From Candidatus Daviesbacteria bacterium (lineage in GTDB: Bacteria > Patescibacteriota > Microgenomatia > Daviesbacterales > UBA10151), in assembly GCA_028715175.1 (NCBI GenBank), contig JAQUSJ010000001.1, forward strand, positions 340,550-404,549: 64,000 bases of DNA. Direction: 5' to 3'. Of this stretch, positions 1 through 64,000 are shown piece after piece. The first letter of the stretch is position 1, and each line of letters begins with the position of its first letter. A program made the position numbers and the translations under genes. The notes under the pieces are model-generated. The model was not told the origin of the DNA and searched no databases. It saw nothing but the letters and a program-made list of their open reading frames with translations.

Positions 1-830
1 TCGCCGGATTGATCATTTCTAATACTTCCTTTGTACTGGCTTTAATATTTCTCTTCGAGCTGATAAAGATTGATTTTTCAAAACAAATAGCATATTTGAC
101 AATTATTTTAATATTGATTTTTCCAACCTCGTTTTATTTTGGTGCAGTTTATAACGAATCGCTATTTTTGCTTTTGTCAGTTCTATCTTTTTATAATGCG
201 AGAAAAGGGAATTGGTTTATTGCAGGAGTGGCAGGTATGGTTTCGTCTGCAACTAGAGTTTTTGGCGTTTTCCTTTTACCGGCACTTTTAATTGAAGCCT
301 GGCAGCAGAAGGTAGATTTTTCCAGAGCTTTTTGGATTTTGTTGATTCCCTTTGGCCTTGGAGCGTATATGTGGTATTTACAAGCCAGCGTTGGAGATCC
401 TATTGCTTTTTACAATTTTCAGACTTTGGTCGGGGAGCAACATCAAAGAGGGATAATTACTTTACCTCAAGTCTATTTTCGTTATCTTAAAATGTTCGTA
501 ACTACAAGTATCCAAAATCCGATATTTCAAACCCTAATATTAGAATTTCTTACGGGGTTGATATTTTTTTTACTTCCTGTCTATGGTTACATAAAAAAGA
601 TTAGACTTTCGTATTTGGTTTACGCGATGTTTGTGTTTTTAACGCCAACTATTCAAGGGAGCTTTTCGTCAATCCCCCGCTATGTAATTATTTTATTTCC
701 TTCATTTCTGGCAGCTGCTATATGGTTTAGTCATTTGCCAAAATTATTTAGGGCAATATTTTTGATTGTTTCTGCCCTCTTGCTTATTGCAGAAACGACA
801 CTTTTTTTAAGGGGATATTGGGTAGCATGA
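1..830 (+). CDS. Polytopic integral membrane protein, GT-C-like (PIG-V/DUF2029 mannosyltransferase-like); 5' partial, no in-frame stop upstream so it likely continues beyond the window start
   Basis: ORF 9..830 is open back to base 1. The protein is very hydrophobic with many predicted TM helices. Call is by weak resemblance only. Confidence 0.4.
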   Translation, partial: AGLIISNTSFVLALIFLFELIKIDFSKQIAYLTIILILIFPTSFYFGAVYNESLFLLLSVLSFYNARKGNWFIAGVAGMVSSATRVFGVFLLPALLIEAWQQKVDFSRAFWILLIPFGLGAYMWYLQASVGDPIAFYNFQTLVGEQHQRGIITLPQVYFRYLKMFVTTSIQNPIFQTLILEFLTGLIFFLLPVYGYIKKIRLSYLVYAMFVFLTPTIQGSFSSIPRYVIILFPSFLAAAIWFSHLPKLFRAIFLIVSALLLIAETTLFLRGYWVA

Positions 831-2092
831 AAAAATATATTAAAGGGATAGTTACACATCCGTTATTTTCTGGAAGCGCCATTATGGTAATCGGTTCAAA
901 TAGCGTTAGTTTTATAAACTACTTATATCATTTGGTAATGGGAAGAATGCTTGGACCTGCAGGATACGGAGAATTGGCATCGCTTATTGCATTAATCGGT
1001 CTTGTGGGTATAATCCCTGGATCGGTGAGCCTTGTAATTGTCAAACAAGTCTCCTCTGCTAGAAGCGATCAGGAGATAAGTAATGTAATAGGATGGCTTA
1101 AGGCAAAGATCTTTTTAGCAGCTGTAATTTTTTCAATTTCTGTTTTGGTAATCTCCCCTTTTATTGCGTCTTTTTTGAATATTCATAAAACTTCTTATTT
1201 AATATTTATTGCAGTATCTTTTTTATTTTCTCTCCAGGCGGGTTTATTCAGAGCAATACTGCAGGGTCTTTTGAAATTTAAAGAGATGATTTTCAGTATG
1301 TTAATTGAAAATAGTGCAAAATTTATTCTAAGTATTTCTCTGGTATATCTGGGATTTCAAGTTAGCGGGGTAATGTTTTCTTTGGTTATATCTGCGATCT
1401 TAGGTTTATATATTACTAATTATTATTTAAGATACCGAACTGTAAATAATACTAAGCCATCATCACATGTTAAATCAATGATGTCATTTTTAATACCTTT
1501 TACTTTACAGTCCGTTGCAATAACTTCCCTTTATTCCTCGGACGTTATTTTAGTAAAACATTTCTTTCCTGCCCACGAGGCAGGTATTTATGCGGCACTG
1601 TCTACATTGGGAAAGATAATTTTTTTTGGTACAGGTCCTATTAACACGGTAATGTTTCCTTTGGTTTCCCAAAGAAAAGCTAAAGGGCAGGATTATAAGA
1701 AAATTTTTAAATATAGTTTTCTCATGACTGCGTTGGGAGCAATTTTCGTCTCGGGATTGTATTGGTTATTCCCAACTTTTGCTATAAATTTGCTTTATGG
1801 CAGCGCGTATCTTGAAGCAAAAAATTTATTAATCTGGTTTGCGGTTTTTATTAGTTTGTTTACCCTGGGATCGCTATTAGTAAGTTATTTATTGTCTTTA
1901 GGAAAAACCAAAGTTGTGGTATTTCCTCTTACAGCAGCCACCCTTCAAATTATTGCAATTATTTTCTTTCATCAAAATTTGCTTACAGTTATATCAATTT
2001 CAATTATTATAACCGCTTTACTACTTGTAGCCTTGCTTATATACTCTATATATGGAAATAAGATTAATTTCAGTAATCGTCCCATGTTATAA
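818..2092 (+). CDS. Wzx-like oligosaccharide flippase (MOP/polysaccharide biosynthesis protein family)
   Basis: 424 aa, about 12 TM helices, N-terminal 'MLGPAGYGELA' motif typical of Wzx/PST-family exporters. Overlaps neighbours in operon fashion. Confidence 0.7.
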   Translation: MGSMKKYIKGIVTHPLFSGSAIMVIGSNSVSFINYLYHLVMGRMLGPAGYGELASLIALIGLVGIIPGSVSLVIVKQVSSARSDQEISNVIGWLKAKIFLAAVIFSISVLVISPFIASFLNIHKTSYLIFIAVSFLFSLQAGLFRAILQGLLKFKEMIFSMLIENSAKFILSISLVYLGFQVSGVMFSLVISAILGLYITNYYLRYRTVNNTKPSSHVKSMMSFLIPFTLQSVAITSLYSSDVILVKHFFPAHEAGIYAALSTLGKIIFFGTGPINTVMFPLVSQRKAKGQDYKKIFKYSFLMTALGAIFVSGLYWLFPTFAINLLYGSAYLEAKNLLIWFAVFISLFTLGSLLVSYLLSLGKTKVVVFPLTAATLQIIAIIFFHQNLLTVISISIIITALLLVALLIYSIYGNKINFSNRPML

Positions 2093-2858
2093 ACAAGAAC
2101 GAACAATTATTGGAAATCTAAAAAGGATTAAAGAGGTTTTAGATAAACTCCGTTATCCTACAGAATTAATTTGTGTGGTAGACGGGAAGATCGATAAAAC
2201 ATTCGAGAAAGCTTCAAAATTTGCCAAGAAATACGAAAACGTTCAAGTGGTCGGATACGAAACGAATCGAGGCAAAGGTTATGCAATCCGTTTTGGAATG
2301 GCTGAAAGCCATGGAGATATCATAGGTTTTATTGATGCGGGTATGGATTTAAATCCAAACGGTTTATCAATGCTTTTAGAGCATTTTGAATGGTATGATG
2401 CTGATATTATTGCAGGTTCTAAAAGGCATCCGGTATCTAAGGTGTGTTATCCTTGGCAAAGAAGAATTCTTTCTATGGGATATCAATTTCTCGTCTGGTT
2501 ATTATTTGGACTCAAAATTAGGGATACACAAGTGGGGATGAAATTTTTCAAAAGAGAAGTGCTGGAAAAAGTACTCCCCAGGCTTTTGGTGAAACGGTTT
2601 GCTTTCGATGTGGAAATGCTGGCAGTTGCCAATGATTTAGGATTTACAAGAATTTTTGAAGCACCTATTGATATCGCATTGCGCTTCGGAGGTACCTCTA
2701 CTCTCACTAGCCAGCAATTTCTAAGGACAGTTTTCGCTATGTTTGTGGATACTCTGGCAGTTTTCTACAGGTTGAAAATATTAAATTACTATTCAGATAA
2801 GAATAAACGAAAATGGAGATTTGATCCGGAATTAAATTTCAGAGTAAATGTTGGATGA
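2052..2858 (+). CDS. Glycosyltransferase family 2 (DPM1/GtrB-like)
   Basis: N-terminal 'ISVIVPCYKQE' GT2 signature, DxD-like 'IDAG' region, hydrophobic C-terminus. Confidence 0.75.
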   Translation: MEIRLISVIVPCYKQERTIIGNLKRIKEVLDKLRYPTELICVVDGKIDKTFEKASKFAKKYENVQVVGYETNRGKGYAIRFGMAESHGDIIGFIDAGMDLNPNGLSMLLEHFEWYDADIIAGSKRHPVSKVCYPWQRRILSMGYQFLVWLLFGLKIRDTQVGMKFFKREVLEKVLPRLLVKRFAFDVEMLAVANDLGFTRIFEAPIDIALRFGGTSTLTSQQFLRTVFAMFVDTLAVFYRLKILNYYSDKNKRKWRFDPELNFRVNVG

Positions 2859-4885
2859 AAATTCTACAGATTGTTATTATAGTTGTTAGTTTTTTTGTAT
2901 GGATATTGCCGAATCATGCTTTAGCTAAAACAGAAACCCTCAATCAATTTGTAAATATAGTTAATCCGGTTCGTATATCTGCATATACTAAGGATCCTAA
3001 AGCGAGTATAGCTTCTCAGTATTTCGAAGTTACAAAAAGAAACCTTCCGGCAACTTGGCTTTTTACTTATGATGCAATACAAAATGATGGAGTTAGGTCT
3101 ATTGCTAATACAATGGATCGAAATCAAGAATTAGGTCTTTTTTTAGAGGTGACACCGCTTTTTGCACGGGATGCGGGTGTAATTTATAATCAAACAGATT
3201 CCTGGCATAGATCAAATTCACTTTTTTTGTCCGGATATACGCAAGATGATAGAGAAAAATTAATTGATCAGGTTTTTAATAAATTTAGAGAAAAATTTGG
3301 CTTTTATCCTGTTTCCGTAGGATCTTGGTGGATTGATAGTTTTTCATTAGAATACATGAAAAATAAGTATGGTGTGATCGCAAATTTGACTTGCGCTGAT
3401 CAATTCGAGACTGATGGGTATCATATTTGGGGGCAGTATTGGAGCACACCTTTTTTCCCAAGTAGATATCATGCCGGCATGCCTGCAAATGATATAAATT
3501 CAAAACTTGATTTGGTGACTATTCAATGGGCAGAGAGAGATCCTTTAAACGGATACGGGAAAGGGCCTGCAAGCCTTTTTAGTACCCAGGATTATTTTGA
3601 TATTGATTACTTTCAAGAACTGGTTCGTTTTTATGCCGAAAAACATAGTAATAGCTTTGGACAAATCACAATTGGCTTGGAAGGAGATTTTACACAAGAG
3701 ACATATGCAGGTACTTTTGCGAGGCAACTTGATTTTGTTTTGGATATGAAAAATAAAGGTCTTGTTGATGTGGTAACGATGAAAGATTTTGCCGGTTGGT
3801 ATAGAAATAGTTTTCCTACAATTTCCCCTTCTCAGATTCTTGAAACAGAAGATTTTTTGGGTAAAAAGATTAAAGCAATTTGGTATCAATCACCTTTTTT
3901 AAGAGCTCATTTGACTTACAATTACGAGACTTATGAAACAAAATTTTTAGATCTTCGATTTTATTTTAATAATTTTGAGGAACCTTATTATGTTTCTCCT
4001 AATCGCGATCTTGATTTATTTATCAATATACCATCAATTATTGATTCAGCCAGTGATGAGAAAGAAGCATGGGTTGTTTTAAAGAAGAAATTGGAGGAAA
4101 TAAATGTTAATGGTAGTGATTTAGTTTTGAAATATCAGGATGGAGCTTTGATCAAATTATCGAAAGATAATTTAACTTTTTCAGGGAAGATAAATCAGAT
4201 ACCAAAGGCTTTAACTCATACACCTGCTGCTAAAATAAATAAGCAAGACAATCTCTTCTTGATATCCCCCGTAAAGAGTTGGATTTTTTCTCAAGACGGA
4301 CTAGTATTTAGAGATTTAACTCCCGAAGCCACAAATTTTCTAAGACAGAAAAGGATTATGGTTGCGGAAGCTATAATCCTACTTATTTTTACAACCGCCC
4401 TATTTTTTATTCTAAAAAGAGATTCGTCTAAGAAGAAACGCCTTTTTTCAGCAATTACAATATCGTCAATAATTTTTGGTATATTTTTTTTGTACAATTC
4501 TAATACCCGAAATTACTTTGTATCTCAATCAGAACTGGATGCGTTAATACGTTTATCATTAATGCCGGATGGTAAAATTGTAGTTTTTGATAGGGTTTGT
4601 TTGCAGTGCTCATTCCACACAAAATACTTACCTGCAGTTTTTTCCAATAAACGTAGTTATGTACCTAATGTATCTAAAAAGAAAGTTGTGTATAATTCTT
4701 CAGTTTTTACCGCTAAAACCAGGGAAGAAGCTAGGAAAGAGTTAGTTAAGCTTGAAGCGAACTATATTTATGCAGTAAGATATGAAGATTATAAGGAGAT
4801 AGTTCCATTTTCGCCGGGAGATCTTAATCTTGAAGAAATTTATTCTAATGCGAATGTAATTATTTGGAGGATAAGGAAAAATTGA
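2855..4885 (+). CDS. Exported protein of unknown function with N-terminal signal peptide and C-terminal TM anchor; possibly a carbohydrate-active (deacetylase/hydrolase-like) ectodomain
   Basis: Signal peptide 'MKILQIVIIVVSFFVWILPNHALA', a long soluble domain, then the TM helix 'IMVAEAIILLIFTTALFFIL'. No confident family match by eye. Confidence 0.5.
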   Translation: MKILQIVIIVVSFFVWILPNHALAKTETLNQFVNIVNPVRISAYTKDPKASIASQYFEVTKRNLPATWLFTYDAIQNDGVRSIANTMDRNQELGLFLEVTPLFARDAGVIYNQTDSWHRSNSLFLSGYTQDDREKLIDQVFNKFREKFGFYPVSVGSWWIDSFSLEYMKNKYGVIANLTCADQFETDGYHIWGQYWSTPFFPSRYHAGMPANDINSKLDLVTIQWAERDPLNGYGKGPASLFSTQDYFDIDYFQELVRFYAEKHSNSFGQITIGLEGDFTQETYAGTFARQLDFVLDMKNKGLVDVVTMKDFAGWYRNSFPTISPSQILETEDFLGKKIKAIWYQSPFLRAHLTYNYETYETKFLDLRFYFNNFEEPYYVSPNRDLDLFINIPSIIDSASDEKEAWVVLKKKLEEINVNGSDLVLKYQDGALIKLSKDNLTFSGKINQIPKALTHTPAAKINKQDNLFLISPVKSWIFSQDGLVFRDLTPEATNFLRQKRIMVAEAIILLIFTTALFFILKRDSSKKKRLFSAITISSIIFGIFFLYNSNTRNYFVSQSELDALIRLSLMPDGKIVVFDRVCLQCSFHTKYLPAVFSNKRSYVPNVSKKKVVYNSSVFTAKTREEARKELVKLEANYIYAVRYEDYKEIVPFSPGDLNLEEIYSNANVIIWRIRKN

Positions 4886-7006: not shown

Positions 7007-7510
7007 ATGAAATTAGTTGCAGGGTTTTTTACAATATCCCTTTTTGTAATAATATTTTTTTCTACGCCATTTGATTTAATTTATGCTAATGAGGTTGAGC
7101 AGTTGGGTTTACCAGAAACCACCGTTAATCCCGGTTCGTTTTATTACTCTTTCAAAAGATTATTTGAAAAAGGTCAAGAAAAATTACTTTTTTTCCAGCA
7201 ATCCAAAAAAAGTTTTTATGAATCTTTAGTAAAAATGAGACTTTCGGAATTAAATTATGTAATTGACAAAAAAGCTTTATCAGAAGTTCAGCGTAGCAGT
7301 GAAAGATTTGCCTATCAAGCGGGTATTCTGACTGAAGAAGTAATAAAACAAAATCAAATTAACGATAAAGAAAATCTGATTAAAGAATTTGATAGGTACA
7401 ACAAATTCCTGTCTAATTTAAGAGATAAATATCCGGCAAATTCTAGTTTTTGGATGTTAGTTCAGCATGATATTAATACCCTAAATATATCATCTAATCG
7501 TTTGAAATAA
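7007..7510 (+). CDS. Small secreted/membrane-anchored helical protein (DUF5667-like motif 'NPGSFYYSFKRLFE')
   Basis: N-terminal hydrophobic signal/anchor, then a motif that resembles the DUF5667 'LPGSPLYFLKR' signature. Confidence 0.4.
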   Translation: MKLVAGFFTISLFVIIFFSTPFDLIYANEVEQLGLPETTVNPGSFYYSFKRLFEKGQEKLLFFQQSKKSFYESLVKMRLSELNYVIDKKALSEVQRSSERFAYQAGILTEEVIKQNQINDKENLIKEFDRYNKFLSNLRDKYPANSSFWMLVQHDINTLNISSNRLK

Positions 7511-7577: not shown

Positions 7578-8846
7578 ATGAGTGTCGGGGCAAGGGAAAG
7601 AGGAACTGTTAAAAGAGAAGTCTTTAGGTTAGAAGTTTGCCGGGCTTGTGGAAGCAATAAATTATTGTTGTTTCTTCAATTGGGGCCTACACCTGCGCCT
7701 AATGGATTCTTGAAAGCGCACCACCGCCATCAGGCAGAAAAGTTTTATCCGCTTGATGTTTGTTTTTGTCAGGATTGTGGATTAGTGCAGCTTGCTCATG
7801 TTGTCTCTCCCCAAATAATGTTTAAAAATTACGTATATATTCCTTCTACATCTGAAACTATGCGTAATCATTTTGCCGGTTTGGCATTAGATGCTATCAA
7901 AAAAACAGCGGCAAAAGAAGACGATTTAGTAATAGATATCGGCAGTAATGACGGTACGCTCTTAAAATCGTTTAAAGCACACAAAATGAAGATATTGGGA
8001 GTTGATCCGGCTGAGAATCTTGTAAAAAAAGCAAACAAAGAAGGGGTGAATACAATGTGCGCTTTATTTACTAATAAGCTGGCAAAAGAAATTAAAAAAA
8101 AGTATGGGAAAGCCAGGATTATTACCGGTACTAATGTTGTTGCACACGTGCATGATCTAAACGATTTCCTGGAAGGTATAAATGCCCTTCTTTCTGATGA
8201 AGGATTATTTATTTGTGAGTTTCCATATTTAATTGGTTTGCTTGAGGGGATTGAGTTCGACACTATTTACCAGGAACATCTTTCTTATTTTTCAATTTCA
8301 CCGTTTAATAGATTATTAAAAAGACATGGGTTAACTTTAATTGATGTCCAAAGGCTTCCGGTTCATGGAGGTTCCGTGAGAGTTTTTGTCAGTAAAAAAT
8401 CCCTACCACAAAGTATGCGCGTAAAGAATTTACTGAAACTTGAGGAAAAAAAGAAAATTTTAAAACAGGAGACATATTTAAAGTTTAGAAAAAAGGTAGA
8501 TAAAGTGAGGCATGAATTAGTCCAATTGCTTTGGACCCTGCGGATAAAGAACAAAAGTATTGTGGGTTACGGTGCATCCGCAAAAGGAAATATAATATTG
8601 AATTATTGTAGAATTGGACCGGAAACATTAGATTATATCGTTGATTCTATATCGTATAAACAAGGTAAATTTACTCCGGGAATGCATATTCCGATTTTTC
8701 CAGAGTCGAAACTTTTAGAAGATCAACCTGATTATACTTTGCTTCTAGCTTGGAATTTTGCTGATGAGATAATAAAAAAGCAATCAGAGTATCGGAAACG
8801 CGGGGGAAAATTTATTCTTGCGTTACCTAAATTGACAATTGTTTAG
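7578..8846 (+). CDS. NDP-hexose C-methyltransferase (TylCIII/NovU-type: zinc-ribbon + class I SAM MTase + C-methyltransferase C-terminal domain)
   Basis: Cys pairs 'CRACGS...CQDCGLVQLAHV' (putative Zn-binding MTase domain), SAM motif 'VIDIGSNDGTLL', and about 420 aa length typical of sugar C3/C5-methyltransferases. Confidence 0.75.
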   Translation: MSVGARERGTVKREVFRLEVCRACGSNKLLLFLQLGPTPAPNGFLKAHHRHQAEKFYPLDVCFCQDCGLVQLAHVVSPQIMFKNYVYIPSTSETMRNHFAGLALDAIKKTAAKEDDLVIDIGSNDGTLLKSFKAHKMKILGVDPAENLVKKANKEGVNTMCALFTNKLAKEIKKKYGKARIITGTNVVAHVHDLNDFLEGINALLSDEGLFICEFPYLIGLLEGIEFDTIYQEHLSYFSISPFNRLLKRHGLTLIDVQRLPVHGGSVRVFVSKKSLPQSMRVKNLLKLEEKKKILKQETYLKFRKKVDKVRHELVQLLWTLRIKNKSIVGYGASAKGNIILNYCRIGPETLDYIVDSISYKQGKFTPGMHIPIFPESKLLEDQPDYTLLLAWNFADEIIKKQSEYRKRGGKFILALPKLTIV

Positions 8847-54333: not shown

Positions 54334-54476
54334 TTTTAAGCTTGGAATTGACCCTTGTGTGTAATAATTAGTACACTGAAGCTATAAATATTATCAAAAG
54401 TTATAAGTTATTAATAATAGTCCTATTTGTTGCTGCTATATTACGACTTTGGAATTTAGGAGGTATACCTCCCCAT

Positions 54477-55955
54477 TTGAGAAACGATGAAGCATCTTTT
54501 GGATATGATGCATATTCAATCTTAAGTACCGGAAGAGATCAACACGGTGAATTTTTACCAATTCTTTTTAAATCATTCGGTGACTTCAAACCTGGTTTTT
54601 ATATTTATTTGACAGTACCTTTTGTAGCTATGCTGGGATTGAATGAATGGGCAATCAGGTTGCCTGCTGCAATATCAGGAATACTAGGTGTTTATCTCTT
54701 GTATCTAGTAGTGTGGAATTTATTCAAAAATCAGAAAATTGCTTTAGCCTCTGCTTTTTCCTTATCAATCTCTCCTTGGCATATAGCTTTTTCCAGAGGT
54801 GCCTGGGAAGCTCAAGTGACTGTAACCTTAGTTTTAGCCGGGCTATTATTTTTTATAAAAGCTTTAAATCAAAATAACAAGTATCTAGTATTCTCAACTG
54901 GATTTTTTGGGGTAAGTCTTCTAATGTCTCACGGAGCAAAACCAGCAATTCCACTTTTACTGTTGTCATTTCTACCGGTTTACTGGAAAAAGATTATAAA
55001 AATCCCCTTTAGAATAGTATTACTTAGTAGTTTTTTGTTCATTATGTTGTCTTTACCCATTATTTTTTCCTTTTTTAATGGTAAAAGCACTCGTGTGGCT
55101 TTCTTATTGTTTACGAATAAATATCAAAATGCAAAGGTTGAAACGATAGCTCGTGATTTTTTAAATAATTGGTCTAATCACTATAGTTTGCCAATTTTAT
55201 TTATTAAAGGAGATGGTAATCCTCAACATTCTGCTGCCGACTTTGGTGCGTTTATTACTTTAGATATTGTATTTCTATTTTTAGGTTTAAAAACTCTTGT
55301 CAATTTTAAAGATGTAAAAGGAGAAGCTAAAGTTTTCATACTTATCCTGTTGATTTTAGCTCCCTTATCATCAACACTTACTTCAGAAGGCGTTAATTTT
55401 GAGCGTTACTTAATGTTTTTCATACTCATAAATATTATCCTTGGTCTAGGAATAAGCAATTTTAAAAGGAATCTGTTTTGGGGAATATTTTTGTTACTTT
55501 ACCTTTTCTCTTTTTTACTTTTTCTTGATGCTTACTTTATTCATACTTCTGCAAAAAACGGCGCTTGGCAAACTGGTTATAAAGAGATTGTTCAATTCAT
55601 CACACCAATACAAGAAAATTTTCAAAAAATATATATACCTCAAGGAGGTGACCAGCCTTATATTTTTTTCCTGTTGTATCAAAGGTATTCTCCTGAAAAG
55701 TTTCAAGCTTTTTCAGCTTCTGTGAATATTCCCAATGGTTCAGGTACAGGGATGGATTATATTTCTAAATTAGATAATATTGAATTTGTCGACCTTAATA
55801 AGTTCAATCCACCCTTAAATCAATCGTTTCTTATCGTATTGCCTGTAAATAATACTTACAAATTTGAAGGTTTTCTAAAATCTATACATGGAGTCAAAGA
55901 CCCGATTGGATTTCCAATATATAAGATTGATGAGTATGTTCCTAAAAGACTATGA
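54477..55955 (+). CDS. ArnT/PMT-like GT-C glycosyltransferase; N-terminus probably longer than annotated (non-canonical or eroded start)
   Basis: 'LRNDEASFGYDAYSIL' DEA motif. The in-frame upstream sequence encodes the expected first TM helix + 'LRLWNLGGIPP' but has no ATG/GTG/TTG before the stop at 54369-71. Confidence 0.6.
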   Translation: MRNDEASFGYDAYSILSTGRDQHGEFLPILFKSFGDFKPGFYIYLTVPFVAMLGLNEWAIRLPAAISGILGVYLLYLVVWNLFKNQKIALASAFSLSISPWHIAFSRGAWEAQVTVTLVLAGLLFFIKALNQNNKYLVFSTGFFGVSLLMSHGAKPAIPLLLLSFLPVYWKKIIKIPFRIVLLSSFLFIMLSLPIIFSFFNGKSTRVAFLLFTNKYQNAKVETIARDFLNNWSNHYSLPILFIKGDGNPQHSAADFGAFITLDIVFLFLGLKTLVNFKDVKGEAKVFILILLILAPLSSTLTSEGVNFERYLMFFILINIILGLGISNFKRNLFWGIFLLLYLFSFLLFLDAYFIHTSAKNGAWQTGYKEIVQFITPIQENFQKIYIPQGGDQPYIFFLLYQRYSPEKFQAFSASVNIPNGSGTGMDYISKLDNIEFVDLNKFNPPLNQSFLIVLPVNNTYKFEGFLKSIHGVKDPIGFPIYKIDEYVPKRL

Positions 55956-56446
55956 AAAAAGTTTTCATCTATATCATTTTAATTTTTACCATTTTATGGC
56001 TGATTCTATTTTTATTTGCTTATAAGCGAAGCTTGAACGAAAACTATCAATTTAGTGCCGATACTATATGGAAGATAGAACAACAAAGAAGAGAGCACAC
56101 CTACCTATTCCCATTTGTTGCAAAATTTATTCATAATAAAGGCTTCTATTTTAGTTATACGGTTTTTGAAAACTATTTATCTTATTATTCTCCATCAATC
56201 TTTTTCTGCTGCAATCAACCTCTAGTGCTAGAGTTAGTAATTTTACTAATGTTCTATGGGGGAGCTTTTATACTTCTGCGGGAAGTTTCAAAACTAGTCA
56301 AGGCAATTCTATTTTGGATTTTAGCGTATCCTATTTTTCTTTCTTTGATGTTATGGCCACCGTCGCTTGTGTTAGCGCTTCCGATTATTATTCCTGCATC
56401 AGGAATTTTGGTATACAGCCTGTATAAAGAAATAAAGTTCAAATAA
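55952..56446 (+). CDS. Small polytopic membrane protein (164 aa) of unknown function
   Basis: Hydrophobic ORF coupled (ATGA) to the upstream ArnT-like gene. Confidence 0.4.
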   Translation: MKKVFIYIILIFTILWLILFLFAYKRSLNENYQFSADTIWKIEQQRREHTYLFPFVAKFIHNKGFYFSYTVFENYLSYYSPSIFFCCNQPLVLELVILLMFYGGAFILLREVSKLVKAILFWILAYPIFLSLMLWPPSLVLALPIIIPASGILVYSLYKEIKFK

Positions 56447-56497: not shown

Positions 56498-56671
56498 ATG
56501 AAACTTTTAAGCAAGCACATTTTTTTAATAGGATTATTTTTTGTTTTATTAAGCGGTCTATTCATTCTTTTAAATCACTCGGGATTTGCATTAAGATTTT
56601 TAGGTTTTTCATTTTGGATTATGGCAGGAGGGACGTTACTCTATATACTAGAGTTAAAAAATGAAAGGTAA
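56498..56671 (+). CDS. Unlisted small ORF (57 aa, 2 predicted TM helices)
   Basis: Reads ATG at 56498 ... TAA at 56669-71 and overlaps the start of the next gene by 11 nt. TATAAT-like box at 56485-90. Below the ORF-track length cutoff. Confidence 0.25.
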   Translation: MKLLSKHIFLIGLFFVLLSGLFILLNHSGFALRFLGFSFWIMAGGTLLYILELKNER

Positions 56672-59360
56672 ATTTGTAGTAATAGTTTTATTACTTCTAT
56701 TATTTGTGGTTTACTGGCAATGGTTTTTACCGGGGTTAAAAGTTGCAAATGATTTTCCAATAGTTTCCGAATCTTTACTTAAATCTTCTATAAATTTTCC
56801 TTATGCCTGGTCAGAAAATGGTGCCGAAGGGTTAGGGGAGTATTCAACATTTTTTCTTTGGTCCTGGCCACTGTCATTTTTATGGGGTATTCTCGCAAAT
56901 ACTGGTTTAAGTTTCATAATCCTGGAAAGAGTTCTTTTTTTAATGCCATTTTTGCTTATAGGGTGTGTTGGAATTTGGAAATTTTGCGGAAGTATTAAAT
57001 TAACTAATGCTGCTAAATTTATTTCATCCTTTTTTTATTTAACAACTACTTATATTCTCTTAGTTATTGATGGCGGACAATTATCCATAGCGCTTGCTTA
57101 TGCCTGGTTTCCTGTAGCCTTCTTAGCAGTGGAAAAATCTATTAAGGGGGGGTTTAATAAGAAAGTTCTGGCGGGTTTGGCAATCTCAATTTTAGGATTT
57201 TTGGATTTTAGATTTATTTACGTTTTATTTTTACTAAGTTCAGCACTATTTTTTTATCAATTATTTTTAGATTTTAAAAAAAAATACTCATGGTATTTAG
57301 ATTGGATAAGTAGCGGAGTAATTATTGCCATAATAATAACGGGATTGAATATTTATTGGTTATTGCCTTTATTTAAAGCTCCAATCTCCTCCAATACTTA
57401 TGCTTTTTTTACTCAAACTTCTTTCTTAAGCTTTATAAATTTAGGTCATAGCATATTACTTCTTGCGCCTCACTGGTTTAAAAATATTTTTGGAAATATC
57501 ACAACTTTACGTCCTGAATTTATCTTTATCCCGATACTGGTATTCCTAGCACCCATTCTGCGACCTAAAAATCCGGTTGTTGGATTCTGGTTATTAATTG
57601 CTGTGTTTTCCATCTTTTTAACTAAAGGCGCTGAAGGTCCTCTACCAGGAATCTACCCTTGGCTTTTTTCACATATACCAGGTTTTTCATTATTCCGCGA
57701 TTCAACAAAGTTTTTCTTTTTAGGAGCGCTTTCGTATAGTATCTTACTAGGAATAACTACAGATGAGATTCTTAAAAAGACAATTAAATTCCCAAAATTT
57801 AAAATATTTTTTTTAATATTACTATCTAGCTATCTTATATTTCTGATAAGGCCGATTTGGCTTGGACAAACGACCGGTACATTTTCTCATCCTCTATTTC
57901 AACAGGAGTTTACAGGACTTAGTCGATTTATAGAAAGCGATAAAAGTTTCAGTCGGGTATTTTGGATTCCGTTTTTCCCCTCTTTAGGTTATTCAAGTCA
58001 AACTCATCCTAGGGTAGAAGCTGCCCGTTTGGTTCAGAAGAGATCTTTTGCTATTGGTACAAGCGGTACTTATGAAACATTTAATTTTTTAAGGGAAGCA
58101 CCATACATGGGAGAGATTTTTGATGTTGCAGGAATAGGCTATGTTTCTTATCCTTATCTTGATCCGAGGAGAGATAATGTGTACCCGGATAATATAAAAT
58201 ATTACTATACTTTTCTAGACCAGCTTTTAAAAAAATCATGGTTTTCAAAGGTTGAAAATTCAAAAGTTCCACTTCTTAAGACAAAAGAGCACCAGGATAG
58301 ATTTTTTGTTACATCAAACATCTGGTGGGTGATAGGGTCTGATAATCTCTACAACGAATCAACAAAAAGTGCCAAATTAAAACTTTCTAATAATGCTTTA
58401 ATCTTTGCTGAAGAATATCCCGGAATGGGTATAAAGCTTAACGATTTTCCTGAAGCTAAAATTGTACTAAATAGCAAGACAGATTTAGATTTAGCGGCGA
58501 GCTTCATAAAGCCTCTAAATTATATTTTTCCTGCTAAGAATTTAGATTTTGCTCCCAATAAATCCGGTTGGTGGAAAAGGGAGACAGTAGATTTAATTTC
58601 GTGGAGAAGTTTTTTGCAGGAGGAATATGGAATTGATAATCAGGATTTTGATTTAGGAGGCGGATGGGCGATAGGAGAGGGAGACAGGCAATTGACAATT
58701 GACAATTTACAATTTAAAAAAGAAAAAATACTTTTAGCTAGAGTGATGGAAAGCGCAAGAAGCGGAAAGTTGAGTTTTTATCAAAGAAATCAAAAGGTAG
58801 GAGAAGTTTCAACAAAGATTAATGGAGATGCTAATGTCAGATGGTTTGAGGTAGGTCAGTTGATACAAGATGGGGGAGAACTAGGAATAACTTCTTCTGG
58901 AGATATTAATGTAGTTAATGCATTAGCGGTTTTGGACAAAGCTGAATGGGTAAGCTATCAGGATAAAGCTGAAAAGTTGCAGGAGAGGATAGTAAATTTT
59001 GATGAAAAGAATGCGGAAGGTAATAGCGATCCCACTATTGCCTACCAGAAAATAAACCCCACAAAATACAAAGTTATTGTAAGCCATTTAACCAAGCCGT
59101 CACTGATGATATTTTCCCAAAATTATGACGGACTTTGGAAAATTAACGGAAGTCAGACTCCCCTGCCGGTGTATAGTTTGTTGAATGGATTTAGGATAGA
59201 AGGGGATGGAGAGTATATTGTGGAATTTGAAGTACAGAAATATGTTTATTTGGGCTTAATTATCACTGGAGTCACGTTAACGATCTTACTTATATTTTTG
59301 TTAAGATTGCCACGCCGTTTGCAGACTGAAGATCCTGTAAGGGCTCGTTCCTCGCAATGA
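56661..59360 (+). CDS. Giant polytopic membrane protein with large ectodomain and C-terminal TM anchor, distant member of the AftD-like family
   Basis: 899 aa. N-terminal 'FPYAWSENGAEGLGE' loop, 'FRDSTKFF' (cf. RNPFEKLG), C-terminal 'GDGEYIVEFEVQKYVYLGLIITGVTL' matching the family C-terminal motif. Confidence 0.45.
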   Translation: MKGKFVVIVLLLLLFVVYWQWFLPGLKVANDFPIVSESLLKSSINFPYAWSENGAEGLGEYSTFFLWSWPLSFLWGILANTGLSFIILERVLFLMPFLLIGCVGIWKFCGSIKLTNAAKFISSFFYLTTTYILLVIDGGQLSIALAYAWFPVAFLAVEKSIKGGFNKKVLAGLAISILGFLDFRFIYVLFLLSSALFFYQLFLDFKKKYSWYLDWISSGVIIAIIITGLNIYWLLPLFKAPISSNTYAFFTQTSFLSFINLGHSILLLAPHWFKNIFGNITTLRPEFIFIPILVFLAPILRPKNPVVGFWLLIAVFSIFLTKGAEGPLPGIYPWLFSHIPGFSLFRDSTKFFFLGALSYSILLGITTDEILKKTIKFPKFKIFFLILLSSYLIFLIRPIWLGQTTGTFSHPLFQQEFTGLSRFIESDKSFSRVFWIPFFPSLGYSSQTHPRVEAARLVQKRSFAIGTSGTYETFNFLREAPYMGEIFDVAGIGYVSYPYLDPRRDNVYPDNIKYYYTFLDQLLKKSWFSKVENSKVPLLKTKEHQDRFFVTSNIWWVIGSDNLYNESTKSAKLKLSNNALIFAEEYPGMGIKLNDFPEAKIVLNSKTDLDLAASFIKPLNYIFPAKNLDFAPNKSGWWKRETVDLISWRSFLQEEYGIDNQDFDLGGGWAIGEGDRQLTIDNLQFKKEKILLARVMESARSGKLSFYQRNQKVGEVSTKINGDANVRWFEVGQLIQDGGELGITSSGDINVVNALAVLDKAEWVSYQDKAEKLQERIVNFDEKNAEGNSDPTIAYQKINPTKYKVIVSHLTKPSLMIFSQNYDGLWKINGSQTPLPVYSLLNGFRIEGDGEYIVEFEVQKYVYLGLIITGVTLTILLIFLLRLPRRLQTEDPVRARSSQ

Positions 59361-59391: not shown

Positions 59392-60651
59392 ATGCTTAAG
59401 GTTATCCTTTCAACTGCGACGTTTAAACAATCACAAATTACGGTTATCGGCACTATTATTAACGGATGCTTAGGCGCCTTGTTTTATATAGTGCTGGCAA
59501 GGTTTTTGGGCCCTTATAGTTTTGGATTACTAACTGTTTCGGTTGCTAGCTTGACATTAATAGCCGACATCGTTGATTTTGGGACAAATACGGGTATAGT
59601 CCGGTTTGTATCATCCAGTTTAGCTTCCAACCGGGACGCAGCATTGAAATTTCTCAAGTTAAGCCTGGAAATAAAGATTGTAGTCTGGATATTGGTACTT
59701 GCCGGCGGGATCATACTTGCTCCTTTTATTGCAGATAAAATTTTTAATAAGACAGAACTTGTTATGCCGCTTAGGCTGGTTATGGTTGGGGTAGGAGGAG
59801 CCCTTCTTTTTTCCTTTGCCACCTCTTCTTTGCAAGCGTTCCAAAAATATTTAACCTGGAGTTTTGTGAATATATTTACAAATTTTCTAAGATTATTATT
59901 CATTTTATTACTAATTTTTTATCAACAACTGAATTTAACCTCAGGGCTTCTTGTTTACTTGTTATTGCCCTTTTTCGGATTTTCCTTAACGCTGTTTTTT
60001 ATTCCTGCCCGAAAAATTTTTCAAGTCAGAGGTGAGTTTGGCGTAGCTAAACAATTTTTCAAGTTTAATTTTTGGGTTGCCGCCTTTACTTTGGTTGCTG
60101 CTATCTCGTCCCGTCTGGATACTTTTCTAATTGCCCGTCTGCTTTCTCCAAAAGAACTGGGTATTTATGGCGCCGCAAACCAGCTGGTTCAAGTGGTTCC
60201 GCAAATAGTTAGTGCCTTAGGAATTGTAGCAGCCCCGAAATTTGCAAGTTTTGTTAGTATTGCACAAATGATTCAATTTTTTAAAAAGTTTCAATTGTTG
60301 GTTTTGGGGTTAGCAGTTTTGGGAAGTTTAGTAATTCTAATTTCCTACCTAATTATTCCGTTTATTTATGGAGGACAATACAAAGAGGCAGTGCTGCCCT
60401 TTATAATTCTTTTTTTAGCCATGCTGGTATTTCTAATTTCAGTGCCGGTGCACAACAGTATAATTTATTATTTTGGCAAGCCTCAGGTTTTTGTCTGGGT
60501 CAGCATTGGCCATCTGTTGATAATTGGCTTTTTAGGCTATTTGCTTGTTTCAAATTATGGTGTGGTTGGAGCTGCAGTTTCCGTGCTGGCAGGTATGATA
60601 TTTAATTTTCTGATTCCGCTCGGATGGTTCCTGATGAAAGTACGAAGATGA
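59392..60651 (+). CDS. Wzx-like flippase / polysaccharide biosynthesis protein (MOP superfamily), second copy in the window
   Basis: 419 aa, about 12 TM helices, 'LARFLGPYSFGLLTV' motif. Confidence 0.65.
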   Translation: MLKVILSTATFKQSQITVIGTIINGCLGALFYIVLARFLGPYSFGLLTVSVASLTLIADIVDFGTNTGIVRFVSSSLASNRDAALKFLKLSLEIKIVVWILVLAGGIILAPFIADKIFNKTELVMPLRLVMVGVGGALLFSFATSSLQAFQKYLTWSFVNIFTNFLRLLFILLLIFYQQLNLTSGLLVYLLLPFFGFSLTLFFIPARKIFQVRGEFGVAKQFFKFNFWVAAFTLVAAISSRLDTFLIARLLSPKELGIYGAANQLVQVVPQIVSALGIVAAPKFASFVSIAQMIQFFKKFQLLVLGLAVLGSLVILISYLIIPFIYGGQYKEAVLPFIILFLAMLVFLISVPVHNSIIYYFGKPQVFVWVSIGHLLIIGFLGYLLVSNYGVVGAAVSVLAGMIFNFLIPLGWFLMKVRR

Positions 60652-61442
60652 AAATTTATGCAAACACAATCGTTCATAACGAAGAAAATTTTATCTGGTT
60701 TGCTTTGATGAGCGTAGTAGACTATGTGGATAAAATTTTGGTTTGGGATACGGGGTCAACAGATAAAACAGTTGAAATAATTAAAGAAATTATAAAGATA
60801 AAAGGAGATAAAATTGAATTTAAGGAAGTGGGAATAGTTGATAAATATGGAATGACAAAAATGCGCCAGGCACAGCTTACGCAGTCCAATTGCGACTTCC
60901 TTTTAATTTTAGACGGGGATGAGATTTGGTGGGAAGATTCTATAAAACAAGTAATCAGAGAAATTAATACAAGAGGTGCAAAGATTGAGGGAATTGTTGT
61001 GCCGATGGTTGTACCGGTCGGCGATATTTATCATTTACAAGACGAAAAGGCAGGCCAATATAACCTTTTAGGACGTAAAGGGCATTATAATTTGAGGGTA
61101 ATAAATAGAAAAATTTCAGGATTGCATGTAGAAAAAGCTTATCCTTTAGAAGGATATTTTGATGACAATAACAAGCTGCTTCAAGAAAGGGATGAGGTAA
61201 TCTTTTTAGATGTGCCTTATCTGCATGTTACTCATCTACCAAGATCTACAAAAGTGAGAAACTATAACAAATTTAAACTAGAGATGGGTAAACTTCCCTC
61301 CAAAGATTTTAAATATCCGGAAATTTTATACGATTCATATCCGGATATTGTTTCTAATCCGTGGAAAAAATTGTCCGGGATAGAATTTGTTTTAGCTAAA
61401 GCAATAACTCCGTTAAAGAAGATTAAAAGAACTCTTATATGA
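60624..61442 (+). CDS. GT2-like glycosyltransferase (soluble)
   Basis: 'KIYANTIVHNEENFIWFAL...VWDTGSTDKT', 'LILDGDE' DxD. Confidence 0.55.
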   Translation: MVPDESTKMKIYANTIVHNEENFIWFALMSVVDYVDKILVWDTGSTDKTVEIIKEIIKIKGDKIEFKEVGIVDKYGMTKMRQAQLTQSNCDFLLILDGDEIWWEDSIKQVIREINTRGAKIEGIVVPMVVPVGDIYHLQDEKAGQYNLLGRKGHYNLRVINRKISGLHVEKAYPLEGYFDDNNKLLQERDEVIFLDVPYLHVTHLPRSTKVRNYNKFKLEMGKLPSKDFKYPEILYDSYPDIVSNPWKKLSGIEFVLAKAITPLKKIKRTLI

Positions 61443-62236
61443 ATATTAAAACTAAATTAGAAAATGAAGTTTGGAGATCAGATACATATTTTCTGCTGGC
61501 AAAAAAAGGAAGTATGGATATTAATCATCCAGGCATAAAAATTTTACAGAAATTATCATATAATGCACGGAACATATTGGATTTGGGGTGCGGTGAAGGT
61601 ACGCGATTAAATTTGTTACTGGGAAGAAGAACAAATGGAACAGGAGTGGATATCAGCCCGAAAGCTTTAGAAATGGGTAAAAAAAGCTACCCTAAAATTA
61701 AGTTCATTAAAGCTGATCTTGAAAAAATACCATTGAGAAGTGAAAGTTTTGATTTGGTATATTCAGCTTATGTTTTTGAGCATTTAACAAATCCCGCAAA
61801 AGTTTTAGATGAGGCTATACGTTTAATATCTCCAAAAGGACGTTTAGTTTTACTTTCTCCTAATTATGGAGCACCTAATCGGGCATCACCTCCCTTTAAA
61901 GGGTCAAGAATTAAGAAGTTGATTGAAGGTATATTTAATGATTTTTGGAATTTGTTTGCAGTCGGAAATTTGGTGTGGAGAAGGGTAGAGCCCATTGTAA
62001 ATAAGGATAGATATGAAATGGATTGGGATACGACAGTAGAACCATATCTAGGTAGCTTCTTGAGTTACATCAAGTCACTAAACTTAAAGATAGAACAATA
62101 TAGTTCATGCTGGTCAGAAGAATTACCTGACGCCAGGATTTACCAGAAACTTTTTAGAATATTAGGCGAGTCAGGAATTTACCCGTTTAATTTATGGGGA
62201 CCGCATTTAGTTGTAGTAGCAAAGAAGATTCTATGA
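61439..62236 (+). CDS. Class I SAM-dependent methyltransferase
   Basis: 'ILDLGCGEGTRL' motif I. Confidence 0.7.
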   Translation: MNIKTKLENEVWRSDTYFLLAKKGSMDINHPGIKILQKLSYNARNILDLGCGEGTRLNLLLGRRTNGTGVDISPKALEMGKKSYPKIKFIKADLEKIPLRSESFDLVYSAYVFEHLTNPAKVLDEAIRLISPKGRLVLLSPNYGAPNRASPPFKGSRIKKLIEGIFNDFWNLFAVGNLVWRRVEPIVNKDRYEMDWDTTVEPYLGSFLSYIKSLNLKIEQYSSCWSEELPDARIYQKLFRILGESGIYPFNLWGPHLVVVAKKIL

Positions 62237-62934
62237 AAAATTCGATAACTTATGCCGGTACAAAAACTTTGGAAACAATGAATCAGGCAAAGTTTTATAA
62301 TAAGTGGACTTTTTCTAAATTTGATAAATACCTTAAAGGGGATATTTTAGAAGTTGGCTGTGGTACCGGGAATTTTAGTTCCACTTTATCTAAATACGGA
62401 GAAGTTACCGCTATTGATATCGATCAAAGCTTGATACAAAGAGTAGGGGAAGATAAGAGCTTAAAAGTAGCTACCGGATATGGAGATATAGAAAAAGGTA
62501 ATTATTTTTTTCCAGAAAAATCTTTCGATACAGTCGTTTGTATTAATGTTTTAGAACACATTAAAGATGATGAAAGAGCCTTACAAAATATGTGCCGTCT
62601 TTTAAAAAAAGGCGGGAAATTAATTCTTTTAGTACCCATATATAATTTTTTATACGGAGAAATAGATAGAGCCATTAATCATTTCCGAAGGTATAATCCC
62701 GAGCAATTAAAAGTAAAGCTTGAGCAAATTGGATTTACTATTGAAGAAAGCAGAAAATTAAATTTTCTGGGAGCGCTTGGTTGGTTTATTGCCGGAAGAA
62801 TCTTTAAAAATAAACAGGTAGAAGATAGCAAGATTCAATTGTTTAACACCATCGCTCCTTTTTATCTTTTTATAGAGGATTTTATTGAACCTGTGATTGG
62901 AACTTCTGTTTTAATAATTGCACAAAAGCCATGA
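62233..62934 (+). CDS. Class I SAM-dependent methyltransferase
   Basis: 'ILEVGCGTGNFS'. I chose the start at ATG 62233 (ATGA overlap with the upstream stop) rather than the listed 62194. Confidence 0.7.
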   Translation: MKNSITYAGTKTLETMNQAKFYNKWTFSKFDKYLKGDILEVGCGTGNFSSTLSKYGEVTAIDIDQSLIQRVGEDKSLKVATGYGDIEKGNYFFPEKSFDTVVCINVLEHIKDDERALQNMCRLLKKGGKLILLVPIYNFLYGEIDRAINHFRRYNPEQLKVKLEQIGFTIEESRKLNFLGALGWFIAGRIFKNKQVEDSKIQLFNTIAPFYLFIEDFIEPVIGTSVLIIAQKP

Positions 62935-63635
62935 AACTTTCCATCATAGTCCCTATATATAATGAAGAAAAGACAATCCAGGAAGTTTTGCAGAGAATTG
63001 CTAATATCGATCTGGCTACCATAAAGAAAGAAATTATCATAGTAGATGATGGGTCGACGGATAGTTCGAAGTTTAAAGTGCAAAGTTCAAAATTATTTAA
63101 AAAAATAAAATTTATAGCCCATCAAAAAAATTTAGGCAAGGGTGCAGCGATCAGAACCGGAATAGCGCATTCGACCGGTGATCTGGTAATTATTCAGGAT
63201 GCTGATTTAGAGTATGATCCGAGTTACTATATGCCACTTTTACGACCGATTATGCAAAATAAAGCCAGTGTGGTGTATGGGACACGACTACTTACTTATC
63301 CCCTGAGACTTTGGGGTAAAAATAAAACGGTTTTGCCCGTACACTTAATTGCAAATAAATTTTTGACATTATTAACTAATATTCTTTATCGGAGTAGACT
63401 GACTGATATGGAAACAGGCTATAAGGTGTTTAAGAGCGAAGTACTAAAAAGCATAAATATAGATTCTAATAGATTTGATTTTGAAGCAGAAATAACTGTG
63501 AAACTGCTAAAAAAGAAAGTTCCTATTACAGAGGTACCAATATCTGTTAAACCAAGAACATACAAGGAAGGTAAAAAAATCGGTTTAATTGATGGCTTTA
63601 TTGCCATATGGACATTAATAAAATATAGATTTTAA
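62931..63635 (+). CDS. Glycosyltransferase family 2
   Basis: 'LSIIVPIYNEEKTIQEVL...IVDDGSTDSS', 'QDADLEYDP'. Confidence 0.75.
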   Translation: MKLSIIVPIYNEEKTIQEVLQRIANIDLATIKKEIIIVDDGSTDSSKFKVQSSKLFKKIKFIAHQKNLGKGAAIRTGIAHSTGDLVIIQDADLEYDPSYYMPLLRPIMQNKASVVYGTRLLTYPLRLWGKNKTVLPVHLIANKFLTLLTNILYRSRLTDMETGYKVFKSEVLKSINIDSNRFDFEAEITVKLLKKKVPITEVPISVKPRTYKEGKKIGLIDGFIAIWTLIKYRF

Positions 63636-63636
63636 A

Positions 63637-64000
63637 ATGAAAATTGTATTTTTAAGTAGGTTACAAAATAAAGTCAGTCGGGGTGCAGAGAATTTTGTAT
63701 TGGAATTGTCGAAAAGACTTTCTAAAAACTATCAGGTGGACATATTGTCCGGTAATGATGCGGATAATATATTGAAAGTTATAAAAGGGGGTTATGATAT
63801 TGCGATTCCTATTAACGGTAGATTACAAAGTTTAAAGACTTCTCTAGGTAGAATAACAGGTAAATACAAACTATTGATTACCGGGCATAGCGGTATTGGC
63901 AGGGATGATATCTGGAATATCGCAGTTGCCAGACCTGATGTATTTGTGGCGCTAACTGATTTTATGGCCAAATGGGCCAAGCAATGGGCCTGGGCAAGTA
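63637..64000 (+). CDS. GT4-type glycosyltransferase, N-terminal part (3' partial, runs off window end)
   Basis: Open frame from ATG 63637 to the window end: 'MKIVFLSRLQNKVSRGAENFVLELSKRL...', which is typical of a Glyco_trans_4 N-terminal domain. Confidence 0.55.
   Translation, partial: MKIVFLSRLQNKVSRGAENFVLELSKRLSKNYQVDILSGNDADNILKVIKGGYDIAIPINGRLQSLKTSLGRITGKYKLLITGHSGIGRDDIWNIAVARPDVFVALTDFMAKWAKQWAWAS

Follow-up and report, generated by a model that had tools for sequence, protein, structure and literature searches.

One of the questions raised by a 64-kb stretch of the Candidatus Daviesbacteria genome is what kind of product would call for eleven large membrane proteins of the GT-C glycosyltransferase type, set among sugar-tailoring enzymes, methyltransferases and two Wzx flippases. 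We analyzed the whole stretch, which we call the window, and named its genes by their start coordinates; all positions are window-relative. Its GC content is ~33% (0.30–0.37) and ~95% of it is coding. We defined 51 complete genes, with one further open reading frame (ORF) open at the window start and another truncated at its end (Table 1). Homology was assigned by Pfam and NCBIfam profile scans and transmembrane (TM) helices were predicted by hydropathy. Based on gene content, GT-C fold or family assignment, homology to GtrB and ArnC and conservation of gene order, all of which are shown by the analysis, we read the window as an internal stretch of a lineage-conserved supercluster for cell-envelope glycoconjugate biosynthesis (probability about 0.6). 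The most likely arrangement is that Wzx-dependent glycan assembly is combined with several modules of extracytoplasmic glycosylation, each pairing a synthase with a GT-C enzyme.

The large polytopic proteins

Eleven large proteins with 7–13 predicted TM helices each were sorted by BLAST and by hidden Markov models (HMMs), those of famA and famB being built without window sequences, into four groups: famA (10513, 13588, 15336 and 27699), famB (31196, 45702, 49583 and 56661), the GT39/PMT_2 pair 52690 and 54477, and the singleton 33939. An N-terminal module of 7–13 TM helices is a hallmark of GT-C enzymes (PMC11127046), and the structural models of 15336 and 33939 show such helical bundles. In the AlphaFold model of 15336 (pLDDT, the predicted local distance difference test, of 91), ranks 1–24 of the Foldseek matches in the PDB are all GT-C enzymes (STT3, PglB, AglB, DPY19, ArnT and Pmt4; probability 0.98–1.0). 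The model of 33939 (pLDDT 76) has exclusively GT-C proteins as top matches and also resembles AftA, AftB and AftD by fold. The GT-C matches of both models have modest TM-scores (0.26–0.47), and transporter structures rank below every one of them (probability ≤0.51, mostly ≤0.35, TM-score ~0.1). For these two proteins the comparison with known structures bore out the GT-C prediction of the initial annotation. Together with the family assignments described below, this identifies the polytopic proteins as being of GT-C type, not transporters.

The conserved residues can be looked at family by family. An alignment of 44 famA homologs, all from the Candidate Phyla Radiation (CPR) and several named Daviesbacteria, has G30, D31 and D32 directly after the first TM helix (TM1) in at least 90% of the sequences, and D31 and D32 are acidic in 93–95%. 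In famB, position 36 (D36 after TM1) is acidic in 100% of the aligned sequences, and the GT39 pair has WGDE and RNDEAS motifs straight after TM1, so that famA, famB and the GT39 pair all have acidic residues in this loop. Profile comparison with hhalign gives a probability of 81% for famA against famB, with the famA GDD aligned to a famB GEEG; neither the 33939 family against famB nor famA against 54477 was significant. An exhaustive search with a profile of 33939 found only 257 representatives at E ≤0.001 among 1.84 billion proteins. DUF2298, which we take to belong to the Pfam GT-C clan, is matched by 5 of 54 distant relatives of 33939. Its invariant D123 and D138 are in one loop, which by the positive-inside rule would be extracytoplasmic.

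Sequence profiles reach these proteins less easily than folds do. Direct Pfam and NCBIfam scans gave nothing for nine of the eleven, for most even at E up to 10, and the search of the membrane proteins that the initial annotation had called for succeeded only in part: 54477 passes the PMT_2 threshold, which 52690 misses, and famB is reached through its relatives. The Pfam domain GT-C_AftD (PF11847) is matched by 24 of the 39 aligned famB sequences (best E 3e-17), and PTPS_related by two. The four window copies are not among these 24, and the link of famB to GT-C_AftD is therefore transitive. famB has a YfhO/AftD-like layout, in which the N-terminal TM module is followed by a large outside domain and a TM helix ends the protein, and NCBI lists a relative with 72% identity as ‘YfhO family protein’; the YfhO Pfam model matches neither the window proteins nor the 39-sequence alignment. 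Taken together, the famB proteins are probable GT-C enzymes. Searches of PDB sequences found no GT-C with the famA and famB profiles, and nothing with single sequences (2855, 52690, the first ORF and its full-length relative, and the C-terminal domain of 33939). NCBI names 52690 and 54477 ‘glycosyltransferase family 39 protein’ and the other polytopic GT-C-type proteins ‘hypothetical’ or ‘DUF5667’.

Of the about 12 GT-C-type proteins first counted, eleven stand, and a further polytopic ORF (3..830) is cut by the window start. This ORF has full-length relatives in loci L075 and L076 and no Pfam or PDB match; it is a possible twelfth GT-C enzyme, with a PIG-V-like appearance that is an impression only. 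The protein 2855 was rejected as a GT-C or Wzy protein, having only three hydrophobic segments (a signal anchor and two TM helices). Oligosaccharyltransferase (OST) membership was also rejected: a WWDYG-type motif is absent from the C-terminal domains of all eleven polytopic proteins, no sequence match to any OST was found, and the similarity is at the fold level alone.

Several side observations concern the same genes. In the famB tandem pair the N-terminal ~640 residues (45702–47620 and 49583–51510) are 89% identical and the outside domains ~32%. The same pair is 93% and 74% identical in the closest relatives (L006 and L007) and 31–46% in ten other genomes, and orthologs are only ~69% identical between genomes. 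This pattern points to gene conversion that has recurred within the catalytic membrane module alone. DUF5667 is found as a stand-alone anchored protein (7007–7510) and in the outside domain of 45702 (residues 668–767), as well as in several sequences of the famB alignment. The gene 54477 probably uses a non-canonical start codon, because TM1 and an LRLWNLG motif are upstream of its first ATG, GTG or TTG (54477). NCBI starts it at ATA 54417 (512 instead of 492 amino acids), and an ATT or ATC near 54390 would give a full TM1 (region 54384–54477).

Sugar donors, flippases and a possible pathway

Another question is which enzymes may supply the GT-C proteins with donors. The protein 25841 aligns end to end with the GtrB structure 5EKP (residues 7–311, E 3.9e-65) and scores 227 bits against the PgfS model, below its cutoff, whilst 36308 aligns with ArnC over its full length (residues 5–313, E 4.4e-40). 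Each has two C-terminal TM helices, and by homology both are assigned as GtrB/ArnC-type polyprenyl-phosphate sugar synthases. Such anchors had been proposed for four family 2 glycosyltransferases (GT2s), of which these are two; the other two, 2052 and 9723, have no TM helix. Like 62931, which also lacks one, they cover the PpgS, AglJ and Dol-P-hexose-transferase models almost completely, at scores far below the cutoffs, and these three probably load single sugars onto polyprenyl phosphate.

The two Wzx exporters that had been recognized, 818 and 59392, were confirmed, with scores above the Polysacc_synt cutoff of 28.2 bits and the ~12 TM helices of a Wzx protein. A flippase role had also been suggested for the small 4-TM proteins, which found no support in homology: 49232 and 14 orthologs have no match to GtrA at E up to 1 or to any flippase family, and 55952 has no match to GtrA or another flippase. 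A GtrA identity of 49232 was thus rejected. In at least 14 other loci, too, this protein of 114 amino acids and four TM helices neighbors the famB tandem pair; its orthologs of ~115 amino acids always directly follow one large famB gene (L006:11101–11442, L007:10113–10472 and 12 more). The protein can be placed in no known family and has a C-terminal YxPxLIKKGYIEKF motif.

There are ten GT2 (2052, 9723, 17200, 19962, 25841, 36308, 42406, 44650, 60624 and 62931) and three GT4 enzymes (4864, 18036 and 41184), together with four sugar epimerases or reductases of the short-chain dehydrogenase/reductase (SDR) type. The ten methyltransferases of the initial annotation correspond to exactly ten S-adenosylmethionine (SAM) methyltransferase domains (7578, 12670, 19072, 20839, 29258, 40409, the C-terminal half of 42406, 43995, 61439 and 62194), and the genes for amidation, carbamoylation and C-branching chemistry are likewise present (AsnB 37267, carbamoyltransferase 22882 and C-methyltransferase 7578). 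The methyltransferase half of 42406 and the gene that follows, 43995, share 47% identity, which points to a local duplication of the methyltransferase module. A frameshift inside GSLGHGLP|IA, apparently a 2-nt insertion, splits the transketolase N-subunit in two ORFs; the relative in L003 is one intact ORF of 235 amino acids, and either the gene has become a pseudogene or the assembly is wrong at this place.

From these parts a pathway can be suggested. Nucleotide sugars would be tailored in the cytoplasm by SDR-type 4,6-dehydratases, epimerases and reductases, the DesI-like aminotransferase, the C-methyltransferase, the split transketolase, the WecB-like 2-epimerase, the carbamoyltransferase and the AsnB amidotransferase. 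Soluble GT2 and GT4 enzymes would build lipid-linked oligosaccharides on the inner membrane face, where SAM methyltransferases would decorate them and where they may be carbamoylated or amidated, and the two Wzx flippases would export them. In parallel, the two anchored GtrB/ArnC-type GT2s and probably the three anchor-less DPM1/PpgS-like ones would make polyprenyl-phosphate-linked monosaccharides. After flipping, the eleven GT-Cs of four families would use the lipid-linked donors outside, extending or decorating the glycan or glycosylating proteins. The donors, the acceptors, the sequence of steps and the pairing of every GT2 with the GT-C beside it are proposed from family knowledge and gene adjacency; the neighboring GtrB/ArnC-type synthases are the one observation in favor of polyprenyl-(di)phosphate-linked donors for the GT-Cs.

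A more far-reaching version, which we hold only tentatively, is that Daviesbacteria and other Microgenomates assemble most of a major, lineage-defining envelope glycopolymer outside the membrane by a mycobacterium-like battery of GT-Cs, with families absent from Pfam and CAZy (famA, the DUF2298-related family of 33939 and the famB tandem pair) and with the 4-TM partner as a new lipid-sugar flippase or GT-C subunit. If so, the product could form the surface by which these ultrasmall episymbionts attach to their hosts.

Conservation of the locus and the alternatives

Is the locus an oddity of one genome? Taking one genome per species, famB was found in 68 loci, nearly all titled as or syntenic with Microgenomates (Daviesbacteria, Woesebacteria and Amesbacteria), and a typical famB locus of ~23 kb has two to four famB genes and famA. 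Since several GT-C paralogs per locus is thus the norm within Microgenomates, the cluster is a conserved feature of the lineage rather than an unusual island. The block 30061–40015 is syntenic in L003 and L070, and the block 41184–63635 in L006, L007 and L013, where the order is GT4, GT2-methyltransferase, methyltransferase, GT2, famB, 4-TM protein, famB, famB, Wzx, GT2, methyltransferase and DPM1-like GT2. The module GT2–famB–4-TM–famB–famB–Wzx–DPM1-like GT2 recurs in metagenome-assembled genomes (MAGs) of Daviesbacteria, Woesebacteria and other Microgenomates, and 56661 keeps its position upstream of Wzx, adjacent to it in most annotated loci. GT2 and GT-C genes are neighbors four times in the window (9723 and 10513, 25841 and 27699, 33939 and 36308, 44650 and 45702); the first type of adjacency is also found in L013 and L021, and a GT2 of the 44650 type is directly upstream of the famB tandem pair in L006, L007 and L039. 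The GT39 pair with 55952 (52690–56446) is an insertion with respect to the otherwise collinear L006, L007 and L013; relatives have two to four GT39 genes in tandem ahead of the window’s first gene instead. Many GTDB records among L006–L073 are titled ‘uncultured Gammaproteobacteria bacterium isolate binchicken_...’, which looks like a deposit-wide mislabel, because their gene content and synteny match Daviesbacteria.

The window was first described as a large island, with low GC content and weak Shine-Dalgarno signals that suggested a small-genome, possibly uncultivated lineage. The lineage guess was right (Candidatus Daviesbacteria, of the Microgenomates within the CPR), and so were the signals, Shine-Dalgarno cores preceding 6 of 48 genes against a background of 15%, that is, without enrichment. 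A foreign island is rejected, because no integrase, tRNA or GC shift was found in the window and both of its ends are inside the cluster (one frame is open to position 3 and the last ORF runs off at 64000); tRNA and Rfam scans of the 64 kb gave no match. Gene content beyond the window was judged from relatives, and since in close relatives a DPM1-like GT2 and a further two to four GT39-like genes in tandem are found upstream of the first gene, the cluster probably exceeds the window. That the locus is a chimeric assembly or a foreign piece, or that transporters or Wzy-like polymerases were misread as GT-C enzymes, is very improbable. The modest TM-scores and the lack of direct Pfam or NCBIfam matches for most of the polytopic proteins would allow such an artifact, and yet the transporters rank below all GT-C matches in both fold searches, the GC content is flat, and 31196 and 33939 are 100% identical to two neighboring NCBI genes, PHE48_02020 and PHE48_02025, on a contig of 743,708 bp from a MAG of Candidatus Daviesbacteria. 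A second NCBI MAG has the same proteins under consecutive accession numbers, and Logan contigs have the same gene order. Independent MAGs from across Microgenomates share this order as well, so that the chimeric assembly that would have refuted the initial annotation is rejected.

One possible alternative, which we consider unlikely, is that the main role is protein glycosylation, with the GT39 pair and the STT3/AglB-like famA and 33939 modifying S-layer, pilin or other surface proteins from lipid-linked mono- or oligosaccharide donors, as in actinobacterial Ppm1/Pmt, Streptococcus mutans Pgf and archaeal AglJ/AglB. OSTs are indeed the top Foldseek matches of both models, the ArnC/AglJ-like synthase 36308 follows 33939, 25841 is closest to PgfS, and GT39 genes are present. 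Yet the WWDYG-type motif and any sequence-level link to an OST are missing, the GT39 pair is lacking in the closest syntenic loci, and two Wzx proteins, 13 cytoplasmic glycosyltransferases and extensive tailoring of sugars are in keeping with a polymer or a complex oligosaccharide. In addition, famB is AftD/YfhO-like, and enzymes of this group have glycopolymers as their substrates. Less likely still is that several independent glycan pathways happen to lie side by side in a small genome; these would comprise at least a left part that varies (1–30 kb), a 30–40 kb module and a 41–64 kb module. The two Wzx genes are ~58 kb apart, the two blocks are each conserved separately whilst the left part varies between relatives, the GT39 pair is inserted only in the window’s lineage, and genes on both strands form several transcription units. 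However, the modules stay adjacent in other MAGs (L013 with L070 on MFDM01000023, L049 with L006 on CAYQAW010000004), and none of the modules in the window comes with a priming enzyme.

An envelope glycoconjugate supercluster remains our preferred reading, and a number of points weigh against it. More than one product is suggested by the two Wzx genes and by modules that are each conserved on their own. Apart from AsnB, which passes a generic model only, no sugar-tailoring enzyme reaches an NCBIfam equivalog cutoff, so that the chemistry is not assigned, and the transketolase N-subunit is frameshifted. The window famB proteins reach no Pfam GT-C model (E up to 10 for 31196 and 56661, up to 0.01 for 45702 and 49583), and no recognizable polyprenyl-phosphate-sugar flippase is in the window, the GtrA, SMR and MATE families being absent. 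By Pfam and NCBIfam, the window also has no priming phosphoglycosyltransferase, Wzy, chain-length regulator (Wzz) or LCP-type ligase: Bac_transf, MraY/WecA, Wzy_C and LytR_cpsA_psr have no matches, and the sole trace is TIGR04370 on 2855 with 18.8 bits. The window thus does not establish a full Wzx/Wzy pathway. Of the multi-step assembly line first envisaged, the synthases, GT-Cs and two Wzx proteins are there; the priming, polymerase and ligase genes may be outside the window.

The components are of known kinds, and the novelty is in their scale, in GT-C families without a model of their own and in the lineage. The CPR or Patescibacteria make up a large share of bacterial diversity; they live attached to other cells, and their genomes are very small. 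To our knowledge, their surface chemistry is essentially uncharted. Our literature searches on CPR, Patescibacteria and Daviesbacteria found no description of such clusters, and none of the terms glycan, polysaccharide, teichoic and S-layer appears in an overview of Patescibacteria biology published in 2024. Here, glycan assembly takes at least 64 kb of a MAG whose largest contig is 744 kb, and nine of the eleven GT-C-type enzymes carry a hypothetical or DUF annotation. The locus provides conserved modules for heterologous expression (a GtrB-like synthase with its neighboring GT-C, and the famB–4-TM–famB unit), candidate new GT-C families for CAZy, and a target list for work on CPR host attachment and phage receptors.

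Table 1. Genes of the 64-kb window, with positions, strands and supporting scores.
Position	Strand	Feature	Score or remark
3..830	+	C-terminal 275 aa of polytopic protein (387 aa, at least 7 TM in relatives)	6 TM helices
818..2092	+	Wzx-type (MOP) flippase 1	Polysacc_synt 76.6 bits, above cutoff
2052..2858	+	GT2 without TM anchor, weak PpgS/Dol-P-hexose-transferase-like similarity	
2855..4885	+	Signal anchor, ~470-aa extracytoplasmic domain, 2 TM, C-terminal domain; NCBI ‘hypothetical’	676 aa
4864..6003	+	GT4 glycosyltransferase	Glycos_transf_1 116 bits
6018..7004	+	NAD-dependent sugar epimerase/reductase, GDP-fucose-synthase-like below cutoff	
7007..7510	+	Small DUF5667 protein, membrane-anchored or secreted	
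7578..8846	+	NDP-sugar C-methyltransferase	Methyltransf_13/14, 197.5 bits
8827..9726	-	RmlD-like 4-ketoreductase	
9723..10469	-	GT2 without TM anchor, AglJ/PpgS/Dol-P-hexose-transferase-like; divergent partner of 10513	
10513..12411	+	GT-C famA member, 12 TM	famA HMM E 2.6e-46
12670..13551	-	SAM methyltransferase	
13588..15333	-	GT-C famA member, YGDDW motif	
15336..17144	-	GT-C famA member (modelled)	pLDDT 91
17200..18039	+	GT2	
18036..19154	+	GT4	
19072..19965	+	SAM methyltransferase	
19962..20852	+	GT2	
20839..21609	-	SAM methyltransferase	
21707..22801	+	DegT/DesI-like sugar aminotransferase	
22882..24585	+	NodU/CmcH-type carbamoyltransferase	
24599..25323	+	Transketolase N-terminal subunit, frameshift near 24913-24922	
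25325..25834	+	Transketolase pyrimidine-binding subunit	
25841..26794	-	GtrB/PgfS-type polyprenyl-phosphate glycosyltransferase (by homology), GT2 + 2 C-terminal TM	
26788..27615	-	SDR oxidoreductase, overlaps 25841	
27699..29231	+	GT-C famA member, WGEDW motif	famA HMM E 1.6e-30
29258..30010	+	SAM methyltransferase	
30061..31158	-	WecB-like UDP-GlcNAc 2-epimerase	
31196..33901	+	Probable GT-C famB (AftD/YfhO-like), large C-terminal outside domain + terminal TM	
33939..36299	+	GT-C fold protein, small DUF2298-related family (modelled)	
36308..37267	+	ArnC/GtrB-type polyprenyl-phosphate glycosyltransferase (by homology), GT2 + 2 C-terminal TM	
37267..39114	+	AsnB-family glutamine amidotransferase (exopolysaccharide-associated type)	
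39080..40015	-	NAD-dependent sugar epimerase/4,6-dehydratase	
40409..41086	-	SAM methyltransferase	
41184..42383	+	GT4, first gene of conserved right-hand module	
42406..43998	+	GT2-methyltransferase fusion	
43995..44657	+	SAM methyltransferase, 47% identical to C-terminal half of 42406	
44650..45708	+	GT2, 352 aa	
45702..49235	+	Probable GT-C famB, first of tandem pair, DUF5667 in outside domain	
49232..49576	+	Conserved 114-aa 4-TM partner of famB pair	
49583..52615	+	Probable GT-C famB, second of tandem pair	
52690..54333	+	GT39/PMT_2-like GT-C, 11 TM, WGDE motif	PMT_2 22.1 bits, below 26.1 cutoff
54417..55955	+	GT39/PMT_2 GT-C (gene 54477)	PMT_2 44.2 bits, above 26.1 cutoff
55952..56446	+	164-aa membrane protein	
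56661..59360	+	Probable GT-C famB, divergent member	E 1.2e-30
59392..60651	+	Wzx-type flippase 2	Polysacc_synt 83.1 bits
60624..61442	+	GT2	
61439..62236	+	SAM methyltransferase	
62194..62934	+	SAM methyltransferase	
62931..63635	+	GT2 without TM anchor, AglJ/PpgS/DPM1-like	
63637..64000	+	Start of ORF running off window end, GT4-like by eye from N-terminal sequence only	

Comparison with known glycosylation systems

Three-component extracytoplasmic glycosylation systems consist of a synthase, a flippase and a GT-C enzyme, as in GtrA/GtrB/GtrX of Shigella and Salmonella or CsbB/GtcA/YfhO of Bacillus and Listeria (PMC11127046). The window resembles them in that GtrB/ArnC-type GT2s with two C-terminal TM helices (25841 and 36308) adjoin GT-C-fold transferases, in the YfhO/AftD-like layout of famB, and in the Wzx-dependent glycan genes alongside. 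Where those systems have a single trio, it has eleven GT-C genes, which fall into four families, and as many as five candidate synthases; it has no GtrA, SMR or MATE flippase homolog, its famA, famB and 33939 proteins match no curated Pfam model themselves, and its host is a CPR bacterium without a characterized envelope polymer.

In mycobacteria, the assembly of arabinogalactan and lipoarabinomannan relies on Ppm1 and PpgS together with Emb, AftA–D, Mpt, PimE and Rv3779, that is, on many GT-C paralogs with polyprenyl-phosphate-sugar donors. The window likewise has many GT-C paralogs, repeats the logic of synthase and GT-C many times, presumably with polyprenyl-phosphate-sugar donors, and includes anchor-less PpgS-like GT2 candidates; relatives of famB match the AftD N-terminal Pfam domain and 33939 matches AftA, AftB and AftD by fold. 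Sequence identity between the mycobacterial enzymes and the window proteins is at noise level, no DPPR synthase or DprE1 was found in the window, and the heavy methylation and carbamoylation genes set it apart, as does a cluster of at least 64 kb in contrast to the dispersed mycobacterial genes.

Protein glycosylation pathways share some parts with the window: the GT39/PMT_2 genes 52690 and 54477 recall Ppm1–Pmt protein O-mannosylation, the PgfS-like synthase with an adjacent SDR and GT-C (25841, 26788 and 27699) recalls PgfS–PgfM1–PgfE–PgfM2, and the STT3/AglB-like folds of famA and 33939 recall archaeal AglJ–AglB. Unlike these pathways, the window has no WWDYG motif and its synthase scores are below all equivalog cutoffs. 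Like Wzx/Wzy O-antigen or capsule loci, it has two Wzx genes, GT2 and GT4 enzymes and genes for tailoring nucleotide sugars; unlike them, no phosphoglycosyltransferase, Wzy, Wzz or ligase was found in it. The share of GT-C genes is far higher in the window cluster than in such loci and, whilst O-antigen and capsule loci are hypervariable, this cluster is conserved across the superphylum.

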